Assembly (NCBI GenBank): GCA_964565125.1
Contig: CAZMCX010000022.1
Span: forward strand, 1-10,220
DNA length: 10,220 nt
From: an uncultured archaeon
GTDB taxonomy: Archaea > Iainarchaeota > Iainarchaeia > Iainarchaeales > 0-14-0-20-30-16
Reading direction: 5' to 3'
This document shows positions 1 to 10,220 of the stretch, piece after piece (position 1 is the stretch's first letter; each line of letters begins with the position of its first letter). The translations under genes were made by a program, and so were the position numbers. The notes beneath the pieces were generated by a model that was not told the DNA's origin, did not search any database, and saw only the letters and a program-made list of their open reading frames with translations.

Positions 1-13
1 TATAAAAGATATG

Positions 14-21
14 TTTATATA
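14..21 (+). promoter_or_regulatory. Archaeal box-A/TATA element (TTTATATA) for the 44-1222 gene
   Basis: TTTATATA at 14-21 leaves 22 nt before the ATG at 44, so the box centre is about 26-27 nt upstream. That spacing is typical for an archaeal TATA-to-TSS distance and predicts a leaderless or near-leaderless mRNA. No SD motif lies in between. The same 13-mer ATGTTTATATATT recurs at 3962-3974. Confidence 0.55.
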
Positions 22-29
22 TTGTTTGA

Positions 30-43
30 GTTAACAAGTTAAC
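30..43. promoter_or_regulatory. GTTAAC-AA-GTTAAC dyad abutting the start codon (possible operator)
   Basis: The palindromic hexamer GTTAAC occurs at 30-35 and 38-43. Together they form a 14-bp near-palindrome over the predicted TSS and end 1 nt before the ATG at 44. Confidence 0.3.
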
Positions 44-1222
44 ATGAGTAAAAAGATTATCTTTTGTATCATAGGGACAATTATACTTTTCGTACTAATA
101 GCAAATTCTTATTCTTACTCCACTTTTGATATGGAGAAGCAAATTAAAGCACAAAATGAAGACTTTTCAATAGAGATCCTTCCTGAAGCAGAGTATCTAA
201 GCCTACGGCAAGGCTCTTTTTCAATTATTAAACTTGGCATAAACATAGACTCCTATTACAAACTAAAGCTAAATTATGGCTTTGAAAGTGATTTGGAAGT
301 CACAAGCCCAACATACACAGATAACACAAATTTTTCATATTCTAAGGTTCTAAACCTACAAATTCCAAATAACACAGAACTGAGAGAGCATAAAATCTTA
401 GTAAAAATAAATGCAAATAATGGCTTCAAGAACAAAGATTTCGAAAAAGAAATTATAGTAAAAGTAACCGAAAAAGATAGCAAATACTCTTTCAGTTCAA
501 ACACAAATAACTCGACCCCGAATCTTGAGGTAGTTTATTGGAATTATACAACCTTAGCAATAGGAAAGAATTTCCCTTCAGAAAAGGTAATATTTAGTGT
601 AAAAAACACAGGTGCAAACTCAGACTTTTTTCCGATTTTTGAAAATGATGAAAATTGCTTTGTTGTAAAGTACATTCCAATGATAACAAACATCCCAAGC
701 AATACAATAAAGGATTTCTTTTTTGTGGTAGATTACAATACAGAAGTAGGTTATTGTAAAGACACAGAAATCTCAGTTTTCCTGAGAGATTCCCACACAA
801 ACAAGGAATATTTCTTAGGCAAGGAGTTAGTTCTATTTAGGGACGATTACGAGCAAAAAGTAATGCCAGAAACAAAGACAACTCAAACCAATACAAATGA
901 TGAAACAGGACCAAATGTTGACAATCCTACTGGCGTACCTACTGCAGGCTTAGATTATAGTAAGGACTTAAACACAGGCATAGTAGTTAATTCCAATGAA
1001 AATACAGAAGATGTTAATACCTCAATAATACCTATTGGCTCTACTAGTACATTATCAAATTCCAAACCAACAGCATTATTTGCTCTAGAGAATAGAAGCA
1101 TAACAATTGGCGCAATAGTTTTAATTGTTTTAATTTTCGTAGTTGTTATTTTCCGTGGTGGATTTATGAACAACACAAAGAATGTTAAAAAGCTTGTAAA
1201 ACAAATGCAAAAAGAAGAATAA
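44..1222 (+). CDS. Predicted cell-surface / envelope protein (N-terminal signal or anchor, C-terminal TM anchor); function unknown
   Basis: 392-aa ORF. The N-terminus has a charged-then-hydrophobic segment (MSKKIIFCIIGTIILFVLIANS). Two beta-rich segments have alternating-residue patterns. Several N-x-S/T sequons are present (NFS, NNT, NNS/NST, NYT, NTS, NRS). A Thr/Asn/Pro-rich linker (ETKTTQTNTNDETGPNVDNPTGVPT) precedes a C-terminal TM (ITIGAIVLIVLIFVVVIF) and a Lys-rich tail. I recognise no family. Confidence 0.8.
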   Translation: MSKKIIFCIIGTIILFVLIANSYSYSTFDMEKQIKAQNEDFSIEILPEAEYLSLRQGSFSIIKLGINIDSYYKLKLNYGFESDLEVTSPTYTDNTNFSYSKVLNLQIPNNTELREHKILVKINANNGFKNKDFEKEIIVKVTEKDSKYSFSSNTNNSTPNLEVVYWNYTTLAIGKNFPSEKVIFSVKNTGANSDFFPIFENDENCFVVKYIPMITNIPSNTIKDFFFVVDYNTEVGYCKDTEISVFLRDSHTNKEYFLGKELVLFRDDYEQKVMPETKTTQTNTNDETGPNVDNPTGVPTAGLDYSKDLNTGIVVNSNENTEDVNTSIIPIGSTSTLSNSKPTALFALENRSITIGAIVLIVLIFVVVIFRGGFMNNTKNVKKLVKQMQKEE

Positions 1223-1226
1223 AGTG

Positions 1227-2498
1227 TTACAAGAAAATTATACTTGCTAATCCTAAAAATATAAAGAATCCACAAACATCTGTTGCAGTAGTTATAAATA
1301 TGCTTGATCCTGTTGCTGGATCCTTTCCAATATGCTTAAGGAATAAAGGAACAAAGAAACCTGCGCTAACTGCAACCATTAAATTCAACAAAACCGACAC
1401 TGCCACAACAAGGCCAAAGACAAGACTTGCCCCTAATAAATAAGCCAATATCACTGCAACAATTCCAACTACCAGCCCATTAAAAAAAGCTGCAAAAAGT
1501 TCATTGAAATAGATTTTGAAAAATGCTTTTTTTTCTATATTGTGTAAAACAAGACCTCTAACTGTTACAGCAAGAGTCTGAGTCCCGGCATTTCCACCCA
1601 TCCCTGCAATTATTGGCATATAAGCAGCAAGAACAACAAGCGCAGAAATTACATCTCTAAATAACACCACAACAAAAGAAGCAAGGAATGCAGTAAATAA
1701 ATTAAGTATTAGCCATACAGCCCTATTCTTTATTTTTACATAAAATTTATCAAAAATATCTTCTTCTTGCCTTAACCCTGCAAAGCCATACAAATCTTGT
1801 GCCCTCTGTTTTTTTAATAACCTAAAAACATCATCAGAATAAATAATTCCAATAATTGCTTTGCCTTTGTCCAAAACAATTACTTTATTGTGTTTATTAT
1901 GTTCAAATAATTTTATAACTCTTGATTGTTTTTCATGATAAAAAATAGTTGGTACTTTTATAACATAATTGTCTACAACATTATCAAAACTACCGTGAAT
2001 AAATGCTGAAACTGGTATCTCACCCACAAAAAGTCCGTCTTTCTGAACCAAAACTATTGGGTCTTTTCCAGTTTTCTTTTTATGTTTTTCAACAACTGTT
2101 AGAACATCTTTAAATTCAATTCCTAAATCCACCAATACATAATTCAGATCCATCAAACCAGCCGCGGTGTCTGGGGGATATTCTAAAAGATCCGCCACTT
2201 TCTTTGCCATGCTATCCTCCAGCTTAGAAAGTATTTTTTTACGTCTAAAAAAAGATAATCCTTGAATTATATCAGTAATATCGTCTGGATCAGGATACCT
2301 TAATAAATCAATTAATTTTTCGTCTGAGATTTTTTTAAAAATTTGTTTTTGAATTGTATTGGGCAAAGATAAAAGCACTACCCCCCTAAGCCCAATCGGC
2401 ACCCTTAAAAATTCAGCACAATAATCAGTACTATTAATTATTTGGTCAACATATTGGCTTGGCAGGAGATATCCATTATGCATTATAGAAAGAAGCAA
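1227..2498 (-). CDS. mgtE: Magnesium transporter MgtE
   Basis: 423-aa ORF. It has the MgtE_N-type motif LLEYPPDTAAGLMD, a CBS-pair-like middle region, and a TM domain with the signature MGGNAGTQTLAVTVRGL and a TATDVCGFF segment. The track start at 2498 is TTG; an ATG at 2483 (MHNGY...) is the alternative. Confidence 0.9.
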   Translation of the reverse strand: MLLSIMHNGYLLPSQYVDQIINSTDYCAEFLRVPIGLRGVVLLSLPNTIQKQIFKKISDEKLIDLLRYPDPDDITDIIQGLSFFRRKKILSKLEDSMAKKVADLLEYPPDTAAGLMDLNYVLVDLGIEFKDVLTVVEKHKKKTGKDPIVLVQKDGLFVGEIPVSAFIHGSFDNVVDNYVIKVPTIFYHEKQSRVIKLFEHNKHNKVIVLDKGKAIIGIIYSDDVFRLLKKQRAQDLYGFAGLRQEEDIFDKFYVKIKNRAVWLILNLFTAFLASFVVVLFRDVISALVVLAAYMPIIAGMGGNAGTQTLAVTVRGLVLHNIEKKAFFKIYFNELFAAFFNGLVVGIVAVILAYLLGASLVFGLVVAVSVLLNLMVAVSAGFFVPLFLKHIGKDPATGSSIFITTATDVCGFFIFLGLASIIFL

Positions 2499-2510
2499 AC
2501 CAGGTATATA

Positions 2511-2777
2511 TTATTTCTTCTTTTTCTTGATTTCTTTTAAGCCTTCGAGTTTACTTAAAAGCATCCACAAATCTGGTTTCACAGAAATAGGCAAGTTTAT
2601 ATCTTCACAAACATCTTGCAATTTGTAAACAACATCAGAAAGAGCAACAATCTCTAATTCTTTCCCTTCAACGACTTTTTTTGTGTCTTCCAAAACACTT
2701 TTTATGTTTCTCGGGATTGAATAGTCCGAAAGTAACATATTTAAAATATCTACAAGTTCATTTATTTCCGGAGCCAT
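2511..2777 (-). CDS. UPF0147-family small helical protein (archaeal, function unknown)
   Basis: 88-aa ORF with the two repeat motifs I associate with UPF0147 (PF03685-like): D-x-S-[IV]-P-R-N-I-[KR] (DYSIPRNIK) and a second N-[LM]-P ... W ... L-S-x-L-E element (DINLPISVKPDLWMLLSKLE). A strong SD (GAGGTGGTC, plus coordinates 2780-2788) lies upstream of the ATG at 2777. Confidence 0.7.
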   Translation of the reverse strand: MAPEINELVDILNMLLSDYSIPRNIKSVLEDTKKVVEGKELEIVALSDVVYKLQDVCEDINLPISVKPDLWMLLSKLEGLKEIKKKKK

Positions 2778-2794
2778 AGGACCACCTCATAAAT

Positions 2795-2830
2795 AAAAAA
2801 AAGGAAAATTAAATTCCCACAAGGGAATTT
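2795..2830 (-). terminator. Stem-loop plus oligo-T, terminator/attenuator-like, between S3Ae and UPF0147
   Basis: On the minus strand, a perfect 8-bp stem AAATTCCC-TTGT-GGGAATTT (2811-2830) starts inside the S3Ae TAA stop. It is followed by AATTTTCC and a T8 run (plus-strand A8 at 2795-2802). Oligo-T is the known archaeal termination signal. Confidence 0.5.
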
Positions 2831-3422
2831 ACTTCTTCTTGTTTACCTTCTTCAAAAGCAATATTGCACATCCTCTTATTTCCGCAATATTTTTTACTTT
2901 CGAAATAAGGTCTTTTTCTACATCTTTGTTCATAACTAAGTCAAACACATCATCACTACTATTTTTTGAAACAATCATTCCGATCTGCTTTCTCAGTTCT
3001 TTTGAAATATCTTTTACTTTTATTTTTTCAACTTTTCTTCTTGTAACACACAAAGATTTTACTTTTAGTCTCTGACCATCTTTGGTATCTAAAAATTGAA
3101 CAATATCCAATTTATTGCATCTTCGTCCAATAAGCCTTCTTGAAAAGTTTCCTTTCATTTCTAATGCAAACATTTCCGTATATGCATTTGAGGCTTGTAT
3201 ATTATTTACTCTGAAGTAAACATCGTATTTTTTCTTCTGAAATTGGTTTGTAAGTTGTCCCAAGTTTGCTTTAGTAACTCTTCCAATTACTTTTTCATCT
3301 TTATCGGATACTGTATGGCCTATTTCAACATTACCAACTAATTTTGGCGCCATAATTGTATATTCCTTTTTTTTCTTCCACTTATCAACCACAACTCTTT
3401 GTTGTTTACTAGTAGCAGCCAT
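2829..3422 (-). CDS. rps3ae: 30S ribosomal protein S3Ae (eS1)
   Basis: The N-terminal VVDKWKKKKEYTIMAP and the downstream GRV...L..LT and RRL..RR patterns are typical of archaeal S3Ae. The ATG at 3422 (MAATSKQQ...) is preferred. The track start at 3431 is a GTG that overlaps the uS15 TGA stop (GTGA). Confidence 0.9.
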   Translation of the reverse strand: MAATSKQQRVVVDKWKKKKEYTIMAPKLVGNVEIGHTVSDKDEKVIGRVTKANLGQLTNQFQKKKYDVYFRVNNIQASNAYTEMFALEMKGNFSRRLIGRRCNKLDIVQFLDTKDGQRLKVKSLCVTRRKVEKIKVKDISKELRKQIGMIVSKNSSDDVFDLVMNKDVEKDLISKVKNIAEIRGCAILLLKKVNKKK

Positions 3423-3427
3423 AACTA

Positions 3428-3883
3428 TCACCTAACCAATAATGCTGCCTTTTCATCACTATATTTCCAATCCATTGGCAACAATTTCTTTCCTTTATAA
3501 TAAATCGCTAATCTTCTAATCTTAGAAACTGTCAATTGATGACCTCTTTTAGCAGTTCTATCCTTTTTATTAAGTTCTAAGTGCTTCAAAAGTTTAACTG
3601 CGGATCTAATTAGATTCCCTAAATCTTCTGGAAGCCCTGGTTGCAGTTTATTATCCTTTAAAATTTGTGTTATTGTCTTCCCTGCAACAATATCTGCAGA
3701 GGGAATACCATATTGATCTCTTAAGGTTATACCAATCACCGAAGGAGACATTCCTTCCTTCGCAAATGATACAACTAAATCTTCTATTTCTTTCGGTTTC
3801 AACTTTACCCAATCTGGTTTATCTTTTACGTCGGGTTTGGTTGAGCCTGATTTTCCTTTTGATTTTGAGTGCATTCTTGCCAT
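3428..3883 (-). CDS. rps15: 30S ribosomal protein S15 (uS15; S15P/S13e type)
   Basis: MARMHSKSKGKSGSTKP is the conserved archaeal uS15 N-terminus, and the C-terminal KRLAIYYKGKKLLPMDWKY also fits. The ATG at 3883 is preceded by GGAGG (3896-3900) and GGTGA. An alternative ATG at 3895 directly abuts GGAGG and would add MVRV. Confidence 0.9.
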   Translation of the reverse strand: MARMHSKSKGKSGSTKPDVKDKPDWVKLKPKEIEDLVVSFAKEGMSPSVIGITLRDQYGIPSADIVAGKTITQILKDNKLQPGLPEDLGNLIRSAVKLLKHLELNKKDRTAKRGHQLTVSKIRRLAIYYKGKKLLPMDWKYSDEKAALLVR

Positions 3884-3964
3884 GACTCTCACCATCCTCC
3901 TTTTTGAAATTCAAAATAGAATCTAAAAAAAATTAGAGTCTTTTAATTATATTATATGGTAATG

Positions 3965-3972
3965 TTTATATA
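3965..3972 (+). promoter_or_regulatory. Archaeal box-A/TATA element (TTTATATA) for the 4004-5622 operon
   Basis: TTTATATA lies 31 nt upstream of the ATG at 4004 and downstream of the ORF-track ATG at 3956. This argues that 4004 is the real start. It is part of the 13-mer ATGTTTATATATT shared with 11-23. Confidence 0.5.
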
Positions 3973-4003
3973 TTCTACCGCAATATATTTCTTAGTGGGT
4001 CAT

Positions 4004-4507
4004 ATGGGAAAAAAGATTCTTATTTTAGTAGTTATTATTGCAATAATTATTGGCGGATATTTTTATTACACAAATTTCATGGCTGATTCTGCCTATTTTA
4101 TAGAAAAAAGTAGGGAAAAATTCAATATAACTGATTATGCAAACGAAACACAAATTAATGAATACAAAGCATATCTACTCAAAGAACAAGGTTCTAAAGG
4201 TAGCGAAATCTCAAAAGCAATAGATATTGAAACTGGATATTGGGAGTACTATTTAGTTAACAAAAACGCCATGAAATACATCGCAGACACCCCAAATTTA
4301 CTTTCCATAAACTGTGGGCTTGAAGCACAACAACTAAAAACTTTAACAGACAATGGAAAATTAAAATTAAAAGCAATAAAAGCAGACCTGGAATCAAATA
4401 AAGAAAAACTAAAAAGTTATTACGAAATTATGCAAGAACCAATTGAAAATCTAGAAAACGACCTAATTAAGCACAACGACATTTTATATATTTTATGCCC
4501 AAACTAA
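4004..4507 (+). CDS. Membrane-anchored hypothetical protein (single N-terminal TM)
   Basis: The ORF track gives 3956-4507. I prefer the start at 4004 (MGKKILILVVIIAIIIGGYFYY, a classic signal-anchor) because of the TATA position. The rest is a charged, helix-prone domain with two Cys. No family recognised. Confidence 0.65.
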   Translation: MGKKILILVVIIAIIIGGYFYYTNFMADSAYFIEKSREKFNITDYANETQINEYKAYLLKEQGSKGSEISKAIDIETGYWEYYLVNKNAMKYIADTPNLLSINCGLEAQQLKTLTDNGKLKLKAIKADLESNKEKLKSYYEIMQEPIENLENDLIKHNDILYILCPN

Positions 4508-4512
4508 TTAGT

Positions 4513-5088
4513 ATGAAACTAATTTACGAAGGGGCAGAGGCAAAGGTCTTTTTAGACAAAGGCATAATAATCAAACAACGAATTGTAAAAAAATATCGAC
4601 ATCCAAACCTAAATAACAAAATCCTAAAACAAAGAACCAAGGCAGAAGCAAGTATTTTAAGAAAGGTTAAAAAAGCAGGAATTGCTTGCCCAGAAGTAAT
4701 AAAAGAAGATCTAGAAAATTACACTTTATACTTATCTTACATTAAGGGAAATCCTTTAAGAAAATATTCTAAAGACAAAGAAAAACTTATTTTAGTTGGA
4801 AAAGAAATTGCAAAACTCCACAACCACAATATAATTCATGGGGATCTAACAGCACAAAATATTTTTTATGGAGACAAAAAACCAATATTTTTAGATTTTG
4901 GGTTGTCCAGTATTTCTGCAAAGCTCGAAGATTATGCAACAGATTTAACTGTACTAAAAGGAACGATTCTTGCTGATTTTTCAGAAGAAACCTGGAACTA
5001 CATTCTTGAAGGATATTTAAAAAATACGAAGCACGAAATCGAAAACAAAATAAATGAAATTGAAAAAAGAAAACGTTATTTAGGCTAA
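4513..5088 (+). CDS. bud32: KEOPS complex kinase/ATPase Bud32 (Kae1-associated kinase)
   Basis: It has the glycine-loop equivalent LIYEGAEAKVF, the catalytic-loop motif IIHGDLTAQN (family consensus HGDLTxSN), FLDFGLS (the DFG equivalent), and a basic C-terminal tail RKRYLG. Starting at 4513 gives the typical M-x-LI-x-GAEA N-terminus. An alternative ATG at 4495 would overlap the upstream gene by 13 nt. Confidence 0.88.
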   Translation: MKLIYEGAEAKVFLDKGIIIKQRIVKKYRHPNLNNKILKQRTKAEASILRKVKKAGIACPEVIKEDLENYTLYLSYIKGNPLRKYSKDKEKLILVGKEIAKLHNHNIIHGDLTAQNIFYGDKKPIFLDFGLSSISAKLEDYATDLTVLKGTILADFSEETWNYILEGYLKNTKHEIENKINEIEKRKRYLG

Positions 5089-5103
5089 ATAAGTGATACA
5101 AAA

Positions 5104-5622
5104 ATGATTTTAGAGTTATTATTTTACCCTGGAGTAATAATTCATGAGTTCACACACTTTCTAGCCTGCATATTATTGGGTGTAAAAGTAACAAAAATAA
5201 AATTTGGATTAAAAGAATCATATGTACAGCACCAGGATGTGCATAACTGGAAAACAATAATTATTGCTATTGCCCCATTTTTATTAAGCAATTTAATTGC
5301 CACTCTTGGTATTTGGTATGCAGTAAAATTTTATCCAGAGTTTTATTTTTTTGCAATAATTTTATGGCTGGCAATCACAATTATCTTTCAATCAGTTCCA
5401 AGCAAGAAAGATATCCAAAATGTAGACTCAAAAATAGTTTCAATCTACAAAGGTATTGCAAAGAGCCATTTCCTTCTACAAATTCCGTTATTTCTGGCGA
5501 ATACAATTATAATAATTCCATTAAAGTTATTCAATTTTCTTATGCTAATTTTCAATAAATATCAACTTCTAAAAATAGTTTTAATTATTGCGGTATTCCA
5601 CTTAGGAATTTGGTTGGCATAA
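5104..5622 (+). CDS. Small polytopic membrane protein with an HExxH motif (putative zinc metallopeptidase, M50B/DUF3267-like)
   Basis: 172-aa ORF. YPGVIIHEFTHFLACILLGVKV resembles the HExGHxxxxxxxG segment of M50B-like membrane peptidases. At least three further hydrophobic segments follow. The SD-like GTGAT at 5093-5097 lies 6 nt before the ATG. Confidence 0.6.
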   Translation: MILELLFYPGVIIHEFTHFLACILLGVKVTKIKFGLKESYVQHQDVHNWKTIIIAIAPFLLSNLIATLGIWYAVKFYPEFYFFAIILWLAITIIFQSVPSKKDIQNVDSKIVSIYKGIAKSHFLLQIPLFLANTIIIIPLKLFNFLMLIFNKYQLLKIVLIIAVFHLGIWLA

Positions 5623-5686
5623 TTTAGTAAGACAAAGACAGCATTAGTTAGGCAACAAAATATAAAAAAGAAGATAAACTAAAGAC

Positions 5687-5711
5687 AAAAAAACATCACG
5701 GCAAAGAAAAA
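5687..5711 (-). terminator. Oligo-T termination tracts downstream of the archaeosortase gene
   Basis: The minus strand reads ...CCGAGTTTTTCTTTGCCGTGATGTTTTTTTG... starting about 20 nt after the TAG stop at 5735-5737. It contains a T5 run (5707-5711) and a T7 run (5687-5693). I found no convincing stem. Confidence 0.4.
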
Positions 5712-5734
5712 CTCGGAACCACTTGGACCCCTAC

Positions 5735-6295
5735 CTATTCTGCAAAGATTAAAAAATATACAAAAAATAATAAAGTAAATATCCAAAATCCAAACTTAAA
5801 CAAAACAGTATGTAAGATATCTACAGACATCAGATCAAGAATTCCTAAAGAATAGATTACTATTACAATTCTTACAAGATTAAAAATCACAAAGGCAAGA
5901 ATATACCCCAAAATTCCAACTGCTCTTTTCCACAATTTGATTTCAAAGCAAGCAAAAATCAATGAAATAAACACAATCAATTCGTATGCCCCTGAGCAAA
6001 CATCAGTAATATTTATTTGAAAAGTGGAAAAATCCACTGTTGTTCCAACCAAAGTAACATTTTGAAAACTTGCACTAAAAAAATTATAAACCAAGTAAGA
6101 AAAAAACAAAGAGACATAATAATACAAATTAAAATATTCAAAAATAAAATACAAAACCAAAAATGCAAACAAAAATGAAATTAGGAATACAAAAATCTTT
6201 GAAAAAATAGTTAAGGATTTTTTGCTTTTTCCGTTGTTATGTGCATAATGCCTTATTTTTTCAAAAATATTCATTTTTTTCTGCAAAGAAATCAC
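5735..6295 (-). CDS. Exosortase/archaeosortase-family protein (miniature, 186 aa)
   Basis: About five TM segments. FQINITDVCSGAYELIVF matches the family active-site Cys motif (V..CSG). FNLVRIVIVIY matches the N-x-x-R motif. DILHTVLFKFGFWIF matches the His-containing motif. The GTG start at 6295 is preceded by GAGGT (4-nt spacer) and overlaps the patatin TGA stop (GTGA). The ATG at 6274 is an alternative start. Confidence 0.72.
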   Translation of the reverse strand: MISLQKKMNIFEKIRHYAHNNGKSKKSLTIFSKIFVFLISFLFAFLVLYFIFEYFNLYYYVSLFFSYLVYNFFSASFQNVTLVGTTVDFSTFQINITDVCSGAYELIVFISLIFACFEIKLWKRAVGILGYILAFVIFNLVRIVIVIYSLGILDLMSVDILHTVLFKFGFWIFTLLFFVYFLIFAE

Positions 6296-7086
6296 TTTAA
6301 CCTCTGTTTAATTTCGTCTACTTTTGCTCTTGCTGCTTTTTCGCCCTCAATAATTTGTTTTTTTGATAACGCGTAATCAAATCTCATTGAAGAAACCACT
6401 ATTTTTGGATTTATAATTATTGCATCATGCACAGATTTCTTTATTCTTGAAGTCAAATCATCCGACATAATAATAAAAGATCTTTTTAGGGCATCTATTC
6501 TTGTTGGCTTTGCTTCAATATTTTTTAGGGCTTCTATATTCCCTAAATCACTACCAATAACAACATTGTAGCCTTTTTTTGCAACAATATCTACAGGAAG
6601 ATTATTTAGAACACCCCCATCTACTAACCAAGAGCCCCAAAAAAACCTTGCAGGAAATAATCCTGGAATACTCATGCTTGCAAAAATAGCATCAATAAGC
6701 CGCCCATAATCTATATCTAATAAAGCCCCATTTTCGATATTAACTGCAGTACAAGAAAGTGGTATTTTCGTATCTGAAAATCTATTGGACTTGTACACAG
6801 ATTCCAAAAAAAACTGGATATTTTTTAATGTTTTTTTGTACCCAGGTTTTAATAAATTAAATATATCTAAATTATTTTCTTTCAAAAAAGAAAATGCGTC
6901 TGATTTTAGGTGGTCTATATCTTTGTATAAAGCATAATGACCCCCAATCAAAGACCCAATAGAGGTACCACAAATATAATCTATTGGTATTCCTTCTTCT
7001 TCAAAGACTTGTAAAACACCAATATGTGCAAAACCTTTTGATGCCCCGCCGCCTAAAGCAATACCAACTTTTTTTCTTTGGATCAT
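6292..7086 (-). CDS. Patatin-like phospholipase (PNPLA/RssA-like)
   Basis: It has the oxyanion-hole motif GIALGGGASKG, the nucleophile elbow G-T-S-I-G, and the catalytic Asp in LVDGGVLNNLP. The ATG at 7086 (MIQRKKVGIALGGG) is preferred. It has GGTGA 5 nt upstream and lies 1 nt after the Pop5 TAA stop. The track start at 7110 would overlap Pop5 by 23 nt. No signal peptide is apparent. Confidence 0.88.
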   Translation of the reverse strand: MIQRKKVGIALGGGASKGFAHIGVLQVFEEEGIPIDYICGTSIGSLIGGHYALYKDIDHLKSDAFSFLKENNLDIFNLLKPGYKKTLKNIQFFLESVYKSNRFSDTKIPLSCTAVNIENGALLDIDYGRLIDAIFASMSIPGLFPARFFWGSWLVDGGVLNNLPVDIVAKKGYNVVIGSDLGNIEALKNIEAKPTRIDALKRSFIIMSDDLTSRIKKSVHDAIIINPKIVVSSMRFDYALSKKQIIEGEKAARAKVDEIKQRLK

Positions 7087-7087
7087 T

Positions 7088-7429
7088 TTATTCACCCAAC
7101 AAAACATCATTAATTGTCTTTATAGTTCCACTAACTTTTTCTAATTTTATATCCAACATGATTTCATTAGATTTCTTAAATAGTTCTAAAGCAGCAATTA
7201 TTTTTTCAAATTCATCTCTTGATGCTTTTACAACAAAATAAATTCTTTTCTTTTTTTCTGCACTTTTCAAAATTCTAAATTCCATTTGCGCCATAAAATA
7301 AGTTCCAAAAAAAGACCTTACATAACTGTTAATTATATTTTCAAAATTCTCTACTTTATTCATAGAAAACAAAAGGTATCTTTTCTTCTCTCTTAATGAC
7401 AACGGCAAGGGATTCAATTTTCTCTTCAT
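7088..7429 (-). CDS. rnp2: RNase P protein component 2 (Pop5)
   Basis: The N-terminal LPLSLREKKRYLLF matches the archaeal Pop5 signature (LPxxLRxxxRYhxF). The C-terminal VSGTIKT matches the conserved SGTI element. Size (113 aa) and adjacency to Rpp30 also fit. Confidence 0.85.
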   Translation of the reverse strand: MKRKLNPLPLSLREKKRYLLFSMNKVENFENIINSYVRSFFGTYFMAQMEFRILKSAEKKKRIYFVVKASRDEFEKIIAALELFKKSNEIMLDIKLEKVSGTIKTINDVLLGE

Positions 7430-7435
7430 GAAGGA

Positions 7436-7996
7436 TCACTTTCTTTCTAAAATATTAAAAAAATTATTTGCTTGCTCTATTTTTATATTAAATAAAGGAT
7501 ACAAAAATTCATTATTATAAATTACCTGCCAAGGCTCTTTTGCACCCGAAGCAATAAACACAGGTATTGATTGTTTCTTTGCAAGATCCACAAGCAAAAA
7601 AGCGTTCTTTAAGAACCCTATTTGCTGGCCTCTACTCAAATTCAGGTATTCATCAATAAAAACCAGAGGGCAGAGCCCCCTTTGTTTCATAACTGTTATT
7701 GTTGAATTATCAAAGAATTTTGTTTTGTAGTTAAAAGGGTTTATTATAAAATCCAATTTTTTGTCTAAGCAAAAAAACACATCTTTTAGAGAGCTTACTC
7801 TTGCCCCAACATAACAGCCATAATTCCCAGTTTTCTTGAATTCATTTTTGTTTTTTGAGACATCAACAACAAGACAGTGTTTTTTGTTATTCACGTCTTT
7901 AGAATATACTTCTGTGAGAAAAATTATTTGGCTTTCTTTTTCCTTGCCAAGCTTGCCCTTGAGTTCAAAGCCAATAAAATCATACATAAAAATCAT
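7436..7996 (-). CDS. rnp3: RNase P protein component 3 (Rpp30)
   Basis: By eye the C-terminal half aligns to Pyrococcus Rpp30 as I remember it. DFIINPF matches DAIISPW. IPVFIASGAKEPWQVIYNNEFLYPL matches [24 protein letters not shown]. It lies immediately upstream of Pop5, its known partner. The ATG at 7996 overlaps the ATPase TAA stop by 1 nt (TAATG). Alternative starts are the ATG at 7987 (MYDF...) and the GTG at 8017. Confidence 0.8.
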   Translation of the reverse strand: MIFMYDFIGFELKGKLGKEKESQIIFLTEVYSKDVNNKKHCLVVDVSKNKNEFKKTGNYGCYVGARVSSLKDVFFCLDKKLDFIINPFNYKTKFFDNSTITVMKQRGLCPLVFIDEYLNLSRGQQIGFLKNAFLLVDLAKKQSIPVFIASGAKEPWQVIYNNEFLYPLFNIKIEQANNFFNILERK

Positions 7997-9267
7997 TACT
8001 CCAATAACCAAAGCCACAGTGGAACATATTTTATTTTCTTTCCTTTAACTGTTTCTACTTTTTCTATATCATCAGTTATTATTAAACCCTCTTTTAAATT
8101 TAACTTATCCATGGCATCTAAAAGGCCTATCTTTTCTCGATCCAGTTCTGGACTTAATGTTACTTGTATTGCTTTTTTTTCATTGTGTTTTATCGCAATA
8201 AAATCACATTCTTTTTCCCCAGAATAATAAAATAAATCATATTCTCTTCTCTTAAGCTCCAAAAAAACTTGGTTTTCATAATACCAACCTTTCTCTTGTG
8301 CCTCTTTATTTAATAAAGCATTAACTAAACCATTATCAACAATATATATTTTTTTTGGATTCACTACTCTTTTTTTTTCTGAGTCAGTATATAGTGGGAC
8401 AAAGAAAAAATACATTGTAGTTTCAATATAATTTATAAGATCATAAAGAGGATCTTTTGTTACTTTTCTACCTTGACTTTTCAAAAAATTATAATATTTA
8501 TTAACTGAAAAAAATCTTGAAAAATTATTTAGCAAATAATACAAGGTATTTTTTACAAGATCCGGCTGTGGCAAATTATAACGCTCTATTAAATCCCTAA
8601 ATAATACTACATCAAAATAATTTTGCAAAATCCTCGCTCTTGAATAATCATCTTGTTTTATTACTTCTGGAAATCCGCCTATTTTGAGGTACCTGTCAAA
8701 ATGATTTTTTAAAGTATAGCGTTCTTTAGAATGAGTAATTTTATTATCAACAGAAATCTCCAAAGCGTCAAGATATTCCTTAAAACTAAATGGGAACATA
8801 TTATAATCCCAAGTTCTACCTCTTAGTTCAGTAGCTATTTCTTTACTAAGTAACTTAGCAGAACTTCTAGTAATATATATTTCATAATTTTCTGTAGAAT
8901 AAAGTCGCCTCACGAATTTCTGCCAATAGGGAACATTCTGTATTTCATCAAAAAAACAATATACTTTTTTTGAGGTATTATGTGGATAAAGTTCATAATA
9001 TGAATCTAATATTTTTTGTAAATCATCAACATTCAGATCTCTTAATCTTTCATCTTCAAAATTAAGGTAAAGTATTTGGGTTTTATCTATCTTTTTCTTA
9101 AGAAGAGAATAAATTATTTCGAACAAAAAATAAGTTTTTCCTGATCTTCTTGGGCCTATTATTGAATAAATTTTTCCAACATCTACTAGTTTTTTATCTC
9201 TTTTCACTAGTTTTTTCTCTGGAAAACCTTCTAAAAGCACAGTTTTTATGACAGACTTTTCAACCAT
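7996..9267 (-). CDS. COG1373-type AAA ATPase (AAA_14 N-domain + DUF4143 PD-(D/E)xK-like C-domain)
   Basis: Walker A is IIGPRRSGKT and Walker B is YCFFDEIQ. Family-typical elements are LNFEDERL, YITRSSAKLL, RGRTWDYNMFPFSFKEY and IYIVDNGL. The C-terminal segment is YYSGEKECDFIAIK...AIQVT. Confidence 0.88.
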   Translation of the reverse strand: MVEKSVIKTVLLEGFPEKKLVKRDKKLVDVGKIYSIIGPRRSGKTYFLFEIIYSLLKKKIDKTQILYLNFEDERLRDLNVDDLQKILDSYYELYPHNTSKKVYCFFDEIQNVPYWQKFVRRLYSTENYEIYITRSSAKLLSKEIATELRGRTWDYNMFPFSFKEYLDALEISVDNKITHSKERYTLKNHFDRYLKIGGFPEVIKQDDYSRARILQNYFDVVLFRDLIERYNLPQPDLVKNTLYYLLNNFSRFFSVNKYYNFLKSQGRKVTKDPLYDLINYIETTMYFFFVPLYTDSEKKRVVNPKKIYIVDNGLVNALLNKEAQEKGWYYENQVFLELKRREYDLFYYSGEKECDFIAIKHNEKKAIQVTLSPELDREKIGLLDAMDKLNLKEGLIITDDIEKVETVKGKKIKYVPLWLWLLE

Positions 9268-9291
9268 ATAACATATATACTACGGTACGAA

Positions 9292-9299
9292 TATTTAAA
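9292..9299 (-). promoter_or_regulatory. Archaeal TATA element (TTTAAATA on minus) for the ATPase-to-archaeosortase transcription unit
   Basis: The minus strand reads TTTAAATA, with 24 nt between the box and the ATG at 9267. No SD lies between them, which predicts a leaderless mRNA. Confidence 0.5.
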
Positions 9300-9300
9300 G

Positions 9301-9360
9301 GTTTCCTTTTTTTAAGGAAACTATTTACAAAAAGCTTCCTTTTTTTAAGGAAACTATTTC
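9301..9360. repeat. Two-copy 33-bp tandem duplication, each unit containing a hairpin-forming palindrome
   Basis: The 24-nt perfect direct repeat TTCCTTTTTTTAAGGAAACTATTT occurs at 9303-9326 and 9336-9359. Copy 1 forms GTTTCCTT-N5-AAGGAAAC (8-bp stem, 9301-9321). Copy 2 forms a 6-bp stem. The full 33-nt units match at about 28 of 33 positions. Confidence 0.85.
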
Positions 9361-9540
9361 TGAACCAAATTCTTGAATCATGGAATTTAGATCCAATAAT
9401 GTAAAATTATAATATTTGAGTACAGAAATTATAAAATGGCAATCTTTCTCATTACTAATATGATGTTCAACAGGTAGGCCACCAATATTCAAAGATTTTA
9501 CTTCTTCAAGGTTTTTCCAGAGTTTATGTTCTAAAGGCAT
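9325..9540 (-). CDS. Hypothetical small protein (71 aa), coding status uncertain
   Basis: This is the only ORF in the 364-nt gap between eL15 and the ATPase, and it is on the same strand as both. Its composition is not low-complexity. The last 12 codons lie inside the tandem repeat. No motif recognised. Confidence 0.4.
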   Translation of the reverse strand: MPLEHKLWKNLEEVKSLNIGGLPVEHHISNEKDCHFIISVLKYYNFTLLDLNSMIQEFGSEIVSLKKGSFL

Positions 9541-9587
9541 ATAAATAATAAGAATATTAAAAATCTTTGTAAATAATAAATAGAAGA

Positions 9588-9618
9588 ATTAGAAAGTAAT
9601 AATTATTAGAAAGTAATA
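9588..9618. repeat. 14-bp direct repeat ATTAGAAAGTAATA x2 (17-bp period)
   Basis: Perfect copies at 9588-9601 and 9605-9618 are separated by ATT. They lie in the intergenic region between the eL15 stop (9632) and the small ORF start (9540). Confidence 0.8.
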
Positions 9619-9631
9619 GGGACCTAGATTC

Positions 9632-10204
9632 CTATTTTGCCTTTCTTCCTTTTGCTCTTATAGATGGTCTATTCTTCTCGGATCCTTTGCCTTTGTCTAT
9701 TAATCCTCTTCCTTTCTTCCCTGCAGAAGTCAATCCTCTAAATACTCTTCTTGTCTGAGCAACTACACCAGCATAATTCTTGTCTGCCAATATTACCGGG
9801 TGTGATTTTTCTAGTAAAATAACTTCGTAGTATTTATCCTTACCATCTTCTCCAACCCAATAGCTATTCAAAACTTCGCAGTTACTAAATTTTGTGCCTG
9901 CTCTCTGCTCAGCCATCTTCTGGATTGAAACTTTTCTTGTTAATTTTAAGTATCCTGTTCTCTTTGGCTTTCTCCCTTTATTTACTCTAGAAAAAGCACC
10001 TGTTCCTTTTCTTATTTTTACCATGGCCACAATTACCCCTTGTTTTGCCTTGTAACCAAGTTCTCTTGCTCTTACTGGGTTTGTTGGCTTAGCCAATTTA
10101 ACAACACTTGCTTTTTTCTTTCTTAAAGTAATTAGTCTATCAGAATACAATTTTTTATAATCATAATCCGCATCTTTTTCTTTTTTTCTTATCTTAACCG
10201 ACAC
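9632..10204 (-). CDS. rpl15e: 50S ribosomal protein L15e (eL15), possibly 5'-incomplete in this window
   Basis: AKPTNPVRARELGYKAKQGVIVAMVKIRKG, LNSYWVGEDGKDKYYEVILL, RVFRGLTSAGKKGRGL and GKGSEKNRPS are hallmark eL15 segments. The track start at 10204 is GTG. The frame stays open to the window edge at 10220, and the conserved PT(R/N) element sits about 4 residues earlier than in the Haloarcula L15e I remember. The true start may therefore lie just outside the window. Confidence 0.9.
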   Translation of the reverse strand: MSVKIRKKEKDADYDYKKLYSDRLITLRKKKASVVKLAKPTNPVRARELGYKAKQGVIVAMVKIRKGTGAFSRVNKGRKPKRTGYLKLTRKVSIQKMAEQRAGTKFSNCEVLNSYWVGEDGKDKYYEVILLEKSHPVILADKNYAGVVAQTRRVFRGLTSAGKKGRGLIDKGKGSEKNRPSIRAKGRKAK

Positions 10205-10220
10205 TTTCTTGAATTGTTTT

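Follow-up and report, generated by a model that had tools for sequence, protein, structure and literature searches.

The window analyzed here is the whole of a 10,220-nucleotide stretch (contig CAZMCX010000022.1 of assembly GCA_964565125.1, positions 1 to 10,220 of the forward strand) from an uncultured archaeon of the Iainarchaeota. On its minus strand lies a run of 4 closely packed genes, the last 2 of which encode a patatin-like Ser-Asp acyl-ester hydrolase of 264 amino acids (positions 6292 to 7086) and a miniature membrane protein of the exosortase/archaeosortase family (5735 to 6295; 186 amino acids if read from the GTG codon at 6295). We refer to these as the patatin and the sortase. 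A previous reading of the window, made from its letters alone and here called the sequence-only reading, had pointed to this pair and to its position directly behind 2 genes for RNase P subunits. The conserved feature is the adjacency of the patatin and sortase genes, not their linkage to the RNase P genes.

Gene Order and Junctions in the Window

The first gene of the run codes for an Rpp30-like RNase P subunit (7436 to 8017 on the minus strand, as are all features of this section), and its true start is probably the ATG at 7996. The hidden Markov model (HMM) support for this putative assignment was weak, with 14.3 bits to PF01876 (cutoff 35) and 25 bits to NF003023 (cutoff 323), and the call is backed by positional homologs: the protein is 34% identical to proteins encoded at the same position, beside L15e and Pop5, at the related loci L019 and L025. 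Next in order is the gene for Pop5, a 113-amino-acid RNase P protein subunit of the Rpp14/Pop5 family (7088 to 7429; 36.8 bits to PF01900, cutoff 23), followed by the patatin and sortase genes. The gaps are 6 nucleotides between Rpp30 and Pop5, 1 nucleotide between Pop5 and the patatin, and −4 nucleotides between the patatin and the sortase, in agreement with the near-zero intergenic space described previously for the 4 genes.

The open reading frame of the patatin extends in full from 6292 to 7110. The ATG at 7086, which is located 1 nucleotide past the TAA stop codon of Pop5 (7088 to 7090), as the sequence-only reading had stated, was favored over 7110 as the start codon because it is preceded, 5 nucleotides upstream, by the Shine-Dalgarno-like motif GGGTGA (7092 to 7097); homologous patatins also begin at the methionine equivalent to 7086. 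A second Shine-Dalgarno-like motif, GAGGT (6300 to 6304), is placed 4 nucleotides upstream of the candidate GTG start codon of the sortase gene, and Pop5 is likewise preceded by such a motif, GTGATC. We take all 3 to be complementary to the usual 3′ end of archaeal 16S rRNA.

The GTGA overlap between the TGA stop codon of the patatin gene and the start of the sortase gene (6292 to 6295) was present in the sequence together with the upstream GAGGT, but the start codon itself is ambiguous. The candidates are GTG at 6295, TTG at 6286, which aligns with the ATG start codon in the closest relative (L001), and ATG at 6274, which was chosen in the public gene call for the same 10,220-nucleotide contig and gives a protein of 179 amino acids; other members of the 90% cluster to which the protein belongs were called at 186 amino acids. 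The ATG at 6274 is equally possible as the GTG at 6295, and its use would replace the overlap with a gap of 17 nucleotides.

The 112-nucleotide spacer behind the stop codon of the sortase gene is the first noncoding DNA after the 4-gene run, and it contains 3 oligo-T runs of 5 to 7 T on the minus strand (5664 to 5711). An archaeal terminator is plausible here but weakly supported, since the genes of this DNA, which has a GC content of 30%, contain T runs of the same kind. Runs of at least 5 T on the coding strand were found within the genes for the sortase (13), the patatin (4), Pop5 (1), and Rpp30 (7). The previous claim that such tracts appear only after the last gene holds for the intergenic space but not for the genes themselves.

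The Patatin Belongs to a Separate Clade of RssA/NTE-Like Hydrolases

The patatin matched PF01734 with 118.7 bits (cutoff 27.7, E = 4.7e-34) over profile positions 2 to 190 of 191. The catalytic motifs noted in the sequence-only reading are intact, with an oxyanion loop of the GGGxxxG type (GGGASKG, residues G12 to G18, positions 7033 to 7053), the nucleophile elbow GTSIG (residues 40 to 44, with the codon of the catalytic Ser42 at 6961 to 6963), and the DGG motif (residues 156 to 158, with the codon of the catalytic Asp156 at 6619 to 6621). Residues G40, S42, and G44 as well as D156, G157, and G158 were invariant in 14 aligned patatins. The protein opens directly with a glycine-rich strand and has no signal peptide, as had been observed before; it is predicted to be cytoplasmic and, by family assignment, an acyl-ester hydrolase. 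The public annotation is “patatin-like phospholipase family protein,” and the nearest solved relative is the patatin domain of PlpD (5FQU, E = 3.5e-27).

By its sequence, the patatin is an RssA/NTE-like protein of the COG1752 type but not an ortholog of RssA. It has the domain and the Ser-Asp dyad motifs in common with the RssA/YchK-type patatins (COG1752, “NTE family”), many bacterial members of which are of equal length and 35% to 38% identical to it. Unlike these, it is archaeal and paired with a sortase, scored below the cutoff of the RssA equivalog model (107.1 bits to NF007623, cutoff 272), and falls into a separate clade. It also differs in the signature F[FY]WGxWLVDGG, which the sortase-linked patatins carry up to the catalytic Asp (residues 146 to 156, positions 6619 to 6650); both Trp residues of the signature are missing in the outgroup patatins P0014 and P0108. 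The F[FY]WGxW part could be an element that contacts the membrane or a partner protein.

At one locus, L020, the patatin gene was split into 2 open reading frames of 119 and 127 amino acids (9218 to 10004), while the near-identical locus L019 contains an intact gene for 262 amino acids and the sortases of the 2 loci are identical. The split represents either a frameshift, and hence an incipient loss, or an assembly error.

The Sortase Represents an Unnamed Subfamily

The assignment of the membrane protein to the exosortase/archaeosortase family, made in the sequence-only reading and also in the public annotation (“exosortase/archaeosortase family protein”), was confirmed by a score of 36.2 bits to TIGR04178 (cutoff 23, E = 5.7e-9). 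Its relatives at L001, L002, and L004 scored 35 to 37 bits on the same model, and its score to PF09721 was slightly under the gathering score (21.7 versus 25.7 bits). The putative catalytic residues are Cys100 (codon 5996 to 5998), Arg142 (5870 to 5872), and His162 (5810 to 5812), and these were invariant, along with Asn139 and Glu105, in 27 family sequences including the outgroup. Equivalents of the Cys, Arg, and His, and also of the Asn, were invariant in 51 remote homologs. All 51 of the remote homologs that were scanned matched TIGR04178, and they scattered over the XrtX, ArtD, XrtH, XrtG, and ArtB models.

By profile scores, the sortase is a member of an unnamed subfamily and neither an ArtA protein nor a member of any other named Art or Xrt subfamily. 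It did not match the ArtA model (TIGR04125), and its scores for XrtT (16.6 bits, cutoff 250) and XrtG (9.4 bits, cutoff 102.75) were low. The small subfamilies, i.e. pacearchaeosortase (NF033505), ArtD (TIGR04175), ArtE (TIGR04124), XrtG, XrtX, and XrtH, are similar in size (150 to 190 amino acids) and have the same core and the same Cys, Arg, and His positions; even so, the sortase scored far under the cutoffs of the 3 nearest models, which are pacearchaeosortase (22 versus 80 bits), ArtD (15.5 versus 125), and ArtE (19 versus 95). We know of no description of a patatin partner for any of these small subfamilies. Because the sortase is not ArtA, the lipid-anchoring chemistry of ArtA, which the sequence-only reading had cited as background, can be borrowed by analogy only.

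Members of the subfamily are confined to a small group of DPANN archaea, and the nearest genome is labeled Candidatus Iainarchaeum. A profile search of 5.8 billion proteins placed the family in 31 clusters, while an exhaustive search with the sortase profile retrieved 4 representatives at E ≤ 1e-30, 177 at E ≤ 1e-10, and 751 at E ≤ 1e-3, with the distant matches being mostly mini-sortases of 160 to 220 amino acids.

The AlphaFold2 model of the sortase (predicted local distance difference test score 86.6) is all-helical with a short 3-stranded loop directly before Cys100, and no resemblance to it was found among solved structures. Across the family, the N-terminal tail, the loop at residues 120 to 124, and the C-terminal tail are rich in Lys and Arg, while the loops at residues 75 to 99 and 154 to 162 are acidic and poor in Lys and Arg. 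The positive-inside rule predicts an outward orientation for Cys100, for His162, and for the outer part (one half) of the helix that carries Arg142, and a cytoplasmic location for the N-terminal tail. An outward triad would fit the need to process a C-terminal signal on a secreted protein.

The Pair Is Conserved in Three Gene Contexts

Readable DNA upstream of the sortase gene was available for about a dozen distinct lineages of the family. The search from the sortase side yielded 9 metagenome loci and 3 species genomes, and a scan of the GTDB species genomes with the sortase alignment returned 3 genomes only, all of which had already been found from the patatin side. The family has too few members for a phylogenetic-profile test of wide scope. 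The patatin gene, or its C-terminal end, was located directly upstream of the sortase gene at all readable loci with the exception of one sub-clade and the outgroup. The pair loci are the window, L001, L002, L004, L010, L011, L014 to L019, L022 to L024, and L028 to L029, and the junctions between the 2 genes ranged from an overlap of 4 nucleotides to a gap of 9 nucleotides.

Three gene contexts were distinguished. In the first, which includes the window, L001, and L002, the pair follows Rpp30 and Pop5. The locus L001 originates from GCA_028710695.1, a metagenome-assembled genome labeled “Candidatus ainarchaeum sp.,” which is presumably a truncated form of Iainarchaeum, a DPANN phylum; the locus is syntenic with the window, and its patatin is 89% identical. 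The locus L002, with a patatin of 74% identity, is also syntenic, but here the patatin is separated from Pop5 by an inserted gene for 307 amino acids (5035 to 5958), which leaves the pair unsplit. The product of the inserted gene is basic and soluble, has no family match, and was seen in this lineage only.

In the second context, the pair is flanked by MutS-MutL-PDDEXK on the upstream side and by MJ0043_C-SecDF on the downstream side. An example is L004, in which a patatin of 43% identity is followed, with an overlap of 4 nucleotides, by a protein of 181 amino acids that scored 37.3 bits on TIGR04178, and in which the downstream neighbors are an MJ0043_C/TIGR00375 protein and SecDF. The ribosomal protein L15e of the window is only 47% to 58% identical to that of the lineages with the second context, which shows that they are deeply diverged. 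In the third context, found at L015, a gene for a DUF6498 membrane protein is located upstream of the pair.

The recurrence of gene order and tight spacing in these 3 contexts and in deeply diverged lineages extends the adjacency well beyond the contig from which it was described. By contrast, the RNase P adjacency, to which the sequence-only reading had drawn attention, is lineage-specific and incidental, because L15e, Rpp30, and Pop5 (in some cases with Rpp21) remain together and intact on the other strand in the lineages with the second context, apart from the patatin, while the pair follows MutS-MutL-PDDEXK.

In a neighbor-joining tree of 130 patatins, the sortase-linked patatins formed an exclusive clade of 18 tips. 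A patatin of 41% identity at L005 fell outside this clade, and no gene for a membrane protein was located downstream of it. The 2 proteins also co-diverge. We conclude that the patatin and sortase genes very probably constitute a conserved, co-inherited cassette.

Comparison with Known Systems

Archaeosortase and exosortase systems are widespread, and which lipid or head group they attach, and where it comes from, is only partly known; to our knowledge, ArtA is the only one of them to have been studied experimentally. The link between ArtA and lipid enzymes in Haloferax was correctly predicted from the fact that artA is syntenic with pssA and pssD in Methanosarcina (PMC7157517), and PssA and PssD, which are enzymes of lipid head groups, are required for the cleavage and the lipid anchoring that depend on ArtA (PMC7157517; reviewed in PMC6098224). 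The catalytic Cys and Arg of ArtA are critical, according to work cited in the latter review (PMC6098224). The sortase of the window has the TIGR04178 superfamily signature and the conserved catalytic Cys and Arg in common with ArtA, and its gene is likewise located beside a gene of lipid metabolism. However, it has only about 180 amino acids and 4 to 5 helices and does not match the ArtA model, whereas artA is 834 to 912 bp long and encodes about 280 to 300 amino acids (PMC7157517). Neither PGF-CTERM nor another known signal was found for it, and its partner is an ester-lipid hydrolase rather than an archaetidyl head-group synthase or decarboxylase.

A functional analogy, with no homology to either component, may be drawn to eukaryotic glycosylphosphatidylinositol (GPI) anchoring. 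Here, a Cys transamidase exchanges a hydrophobic C-terminal signal for an ethanolamine-bearing lipid, and a step of the phospholipase A2 type (e.g. by PGAP3) remodels the acyl chains. Lipid remodeling of GPI is lumenal, whereas the patatin is predicted to be cytoplasmic.

The sequence-only reading knew of no patatin–archaeosortase pairing, and in the literature that we searched no paper was found that mentions patatin together with archaeosortase or exosortase. Nor was any found for “pacearchaeosortase,” and none of the papers listed for patatin and DPANN concerned such a pairing, as judged by title and abstract. Public annotations already give correct names to both genes; the apparent novelty lies in their pairing, in which a conserved lipase accompanies a mini-archaeosortase subfamily that has no name.

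A Proposed Role of the Pair and Its Alternatives

The best overall explanation, for which we consider the chances to be even, is a co-inherited cassette in which the lipase serves as an accessory, lipid-side partner of C-terminal protein processing. That the patatin and the sortase act in one pathway is slightly less probable than that, and a specific role of the patatin with respect to the lipid acceptor, which is drawn by analogy, is rather unlikely. The cassette is predicted to be co-transcribed and inherited as a unit, with the cytoplasmic patatin encoded first and the membrane sortase of about 180 amino acids second. A joint role in lipid-dependent maturation of surface proteins, which the sequence-only reading had put forward, is a hypothesis. 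In analogy with ArtA, the sortase, at the outer face of the membrane, would cleave the C-terminal signal (a motif, a transmembrane helix, and a charged tail) from a single surface protein or a small number of them, after which the Cys-thioester would be resolved on the amine of a membrane lipid or head group. On the cytoplasmic leaflet, the acceptor, an ester-type lipid or head group, would be prepared, remodeled, or recycled by the patatin (deacylation of a scavenged phospholipid being one example), and the patatin may dock on the conserved basic N-terminal tail of the sortase. It would be accessory rather than essential, because one sub-clade has lost the patatin from the cassette. It is a common view that DPANN archaea rely on other cells for their membrane lipids.

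More doubtful still is the further possibility that these archaea use a lipid or glycerophospho head group of the ester type, which may stem from a host, to anchor or modify the C-terminus of surface proteins, and that a dedicated cytoplasmic patatin tailors this acceptor. If true, this would be a prokaryotic counterpart of the GPI combination of a transamidase with a lipid-remodeling phospholipase and the first enzyme partner of an archaeosortase outside the PssA/PssD head-group pathway. The pair would provide a small 2-protein system for the coupling of C-terminal protein processing to lipid supply, and it could reveal whether ester lipids have a role in an archaeon.

Several observations weigh against a functional coupling of the 2 proteins. 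First, the sortase gene directly follows the PDDEXK gene, with the synteny of the second context but without a patatin gene, at L025 (9567 to 10546), L026/L027 (GCA_053535935.1; 9533 to 10522), and L030 (1931 to 2920); the PDDEXK gene at these loci is of the PDDEXK_15 family, and the synteny is otherwise identical. No patatin gene was found in the 20 kb covered at each of L025 and L026. The sortases without a patatin (P0143 to P0146 and P0148) formed a single sub-clade nested within the patatin-linked lineages in an outgroup-rooted neighbor-joining tree without bootstrap support, which is most simply explained by one loss or relocation of the patatin gene. These sortases have kept the catalytic residues, the basic N-terminal tail, and the slot between PDDEXK and MJ0043_C, so an adjacent patatin is not obligatory for the sortase. 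The most divergent match to the family, the outgroup protein P0151 at L021, is also without a patatin and is encoded beside a secretion-type ATPase and a protein of 2,785 amino acids.

Second, although the pairwise distances of the patatins and sortases were correlated in 10 lineages (Mantel r = 0.93, p = 2e-4), this shows co-descent and not interaction, because any 2 vertically inherited genes co-diverge. Tight spacing alone also says little, because compact genomes pack unrelated genes together, as in MutL-PDDEXK-patatin and Pop5-patatin. The predicted location of the sortase triad at the outer face and of the patatin in the cytosol means that the 2 active sites would not share a compartment, and no fusion of a patatin with a sortase was found, the longer remote homologs of the sortase, including one of 1,102 amino acids, being without a patatin domain. 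Moreover, canonical archaeal lipids are ether-linked and are thus not substrates of patatins.

Third, no cognate sorting signal was identified. The search for substrates covered about 10 to 20 kb per genome, and large proteins of about 935 to 1,458 amino acids that end in a transmembrane helix and a short charged tail were found to be encoded just beyond L15e at L001 (1 to 2584), L002 (1 to 2228), L019 (1 to 2635), L025 (1 to 2581), L026 (1 to 2487), and L028 (1 to 2630). The tail motifs differ between the clades: SSWDIPLT, a transmembrane helix, and KREDE or RKDE in the first context (L001 and L002), and GGINP[LI], a transmembrane helix, and PKK in the second (L019, L025, L026, and L028), where another transmembrane helix is located about 70 residues upstream. 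No known CTERM model matched these tails above its cutoff, the sole match being to LPxTATN with 18 bits (cutoff 32). The large proteins are therefore candidate substrates at best; their gene lies outside the window, and no convincing sorting signal was found among the proteins encoded in the window. The patatin was rejected as a substrate of the sortase since its C-terminus is hydrophilic and has no transmembrane helix.

The main rival explanation is genomic hitch-hiking, in which a patatin of lipid turnover and a sortase of protein sorting are functionally unconnected and have stayed together in a compact, slowly rearranging genome; we regard this as somewhat unlikely. It would account for the retention of the sortase gene in place in the sub-clade that has no patatin, for the predicted location of the 2 proteins on opposite sides of the membrane, and for the mixed content of the gene runs (Rpp30-Pop5-patatin and MutL-PDDEXK-patatin-sortase-MJ0043_C-SecDF), which suggests that operon membership is not functionally coherent. 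In addition, the 2 major contexts are not fully independent, because L15e is encoded a few kb from the pair in each of them. On the other hand, all other immediate neighbors have changed, while the order, orientation, and a junction of at most 9 nucleotides have been kept in about a dozen lineages that are as diverged as the L15e identities of 47% to 58% imply, and the insertion at L002 occurred beside the pair and not inside it. Hitch-hiking is also difficult to reconcile with the finding that both partners form exclusive and mutually matched clades, whereas the related patatin from outside the clade for which downstream DNA was readable (L005) has no adjacent sortase and no patatin accompanies the nearest outgroup sortase (L021). 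Even if hitch-hiking were the whole explanation, a new, unnamed subfamily of mini-archaeosortases would have been defined and the RNase P linkage shown to be incidental.

An improbable alternative is that the sortase homolog has taken on a new role, docking the patatin at the membrane or activating it, and that the pair remodels or detoxifies scavenged, host-derived ester lipids, without protein sorting. The lack of a detected cognate sorting signal would be consistent with such a role, the conserved, Lys- and Arg-rich cytoplasmic N-terminal tail of the sortase could bind the lipase, and the F[FY]WGxW motif close to the catalytic Asp of the linked patatins could be an interface or a membrane contact. 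Yet this tail has been kept where the patatin is absent, and Cys100, Asn139, Arg142, His162, and Glu105 show strict conservation that extends to the outgroup and to the sub-clade without a patatin, which argues for a retained catalytic activity of the sortase that is independent of the patatin.

The view that the patatin is a defense or abortive-infection effector, similar to the CapV phospholipase of the cyclic-oligonucleotide-based antiphage signaling system (CBASS), with the small membrane protein as its partner, is very improbable and was rejected on PADLOC and NCBIfam scores and gene context: although the patatin had weak PADLOC matches to phospholipase effector models (36.5 bits) and a candidate defense ATPase, PDC-S01, is encoded 2 genes upstream in the window, the patatin scored 107 bits for RssA but only 30.1 bits for CapV (NF041079, cutoff 200), the sortase had no PADLOC match, no cyclase or sensor gene was found nearby and no cyclase in the window or the related loci, the syntenic loci L001 and L002 lack the PDC-S01 gene, and the cassette is stably and vertically inherited in conserved housekeeping surroundings rather than in a variable island.

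Other Genes in the Window

A gene on the plus strand (44 to 1222) encodes a probable surface protein of 392 amino acids, rich in Asn and Thr, which matched no family and whose N-terminus contains a signal-like helix. Its C-terminal transmembrane helix is followed by a Lys-rich tail of 22 residues, which is too long for a typical sortase signal.

Between L15e and Rpp30, the window contains the gene for the PDC-S01 ATPase (7996 to 9267, minus strand), a protein of 423 amino acids with AAA_14 and DUF4143 domains and a PADLOC score of 362 bits. An unrelated gene for 280 amino acids is located at this position on the other strand in L001, and the ATPase gene seems to be an insertion specific to the lineage.

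Convergent with the sortase gene is a gene (5104 to 5622, plus strand) for a membrane protein of 172 amino acids with an HExxH-type motif and weak matches to Peptidase_M50B and DUF3267, which is conserved at this position in L001, L002, L011, and L012. An M50-type peptidase was considered as a third conserved partner and rejected, because the M50 gene of the second context, 7 kb distant from the pair, is not related to the DUF3267/M50B-like gene of the first.

The remaining surroundings consist of housekeeping genes (4495 to 5088 on the plus strand; 3428 to 3895, 2829 to 3431, and 9632 to 10204 on the minus strand), and the products identified were the KEOPS kinase Bud32 (176 bits), the ribosomal proteins S15/S13N, S3Ae, and L15e, UPF0147, and MgtE, as is typical of a conserved core region in a small archaeal genome.

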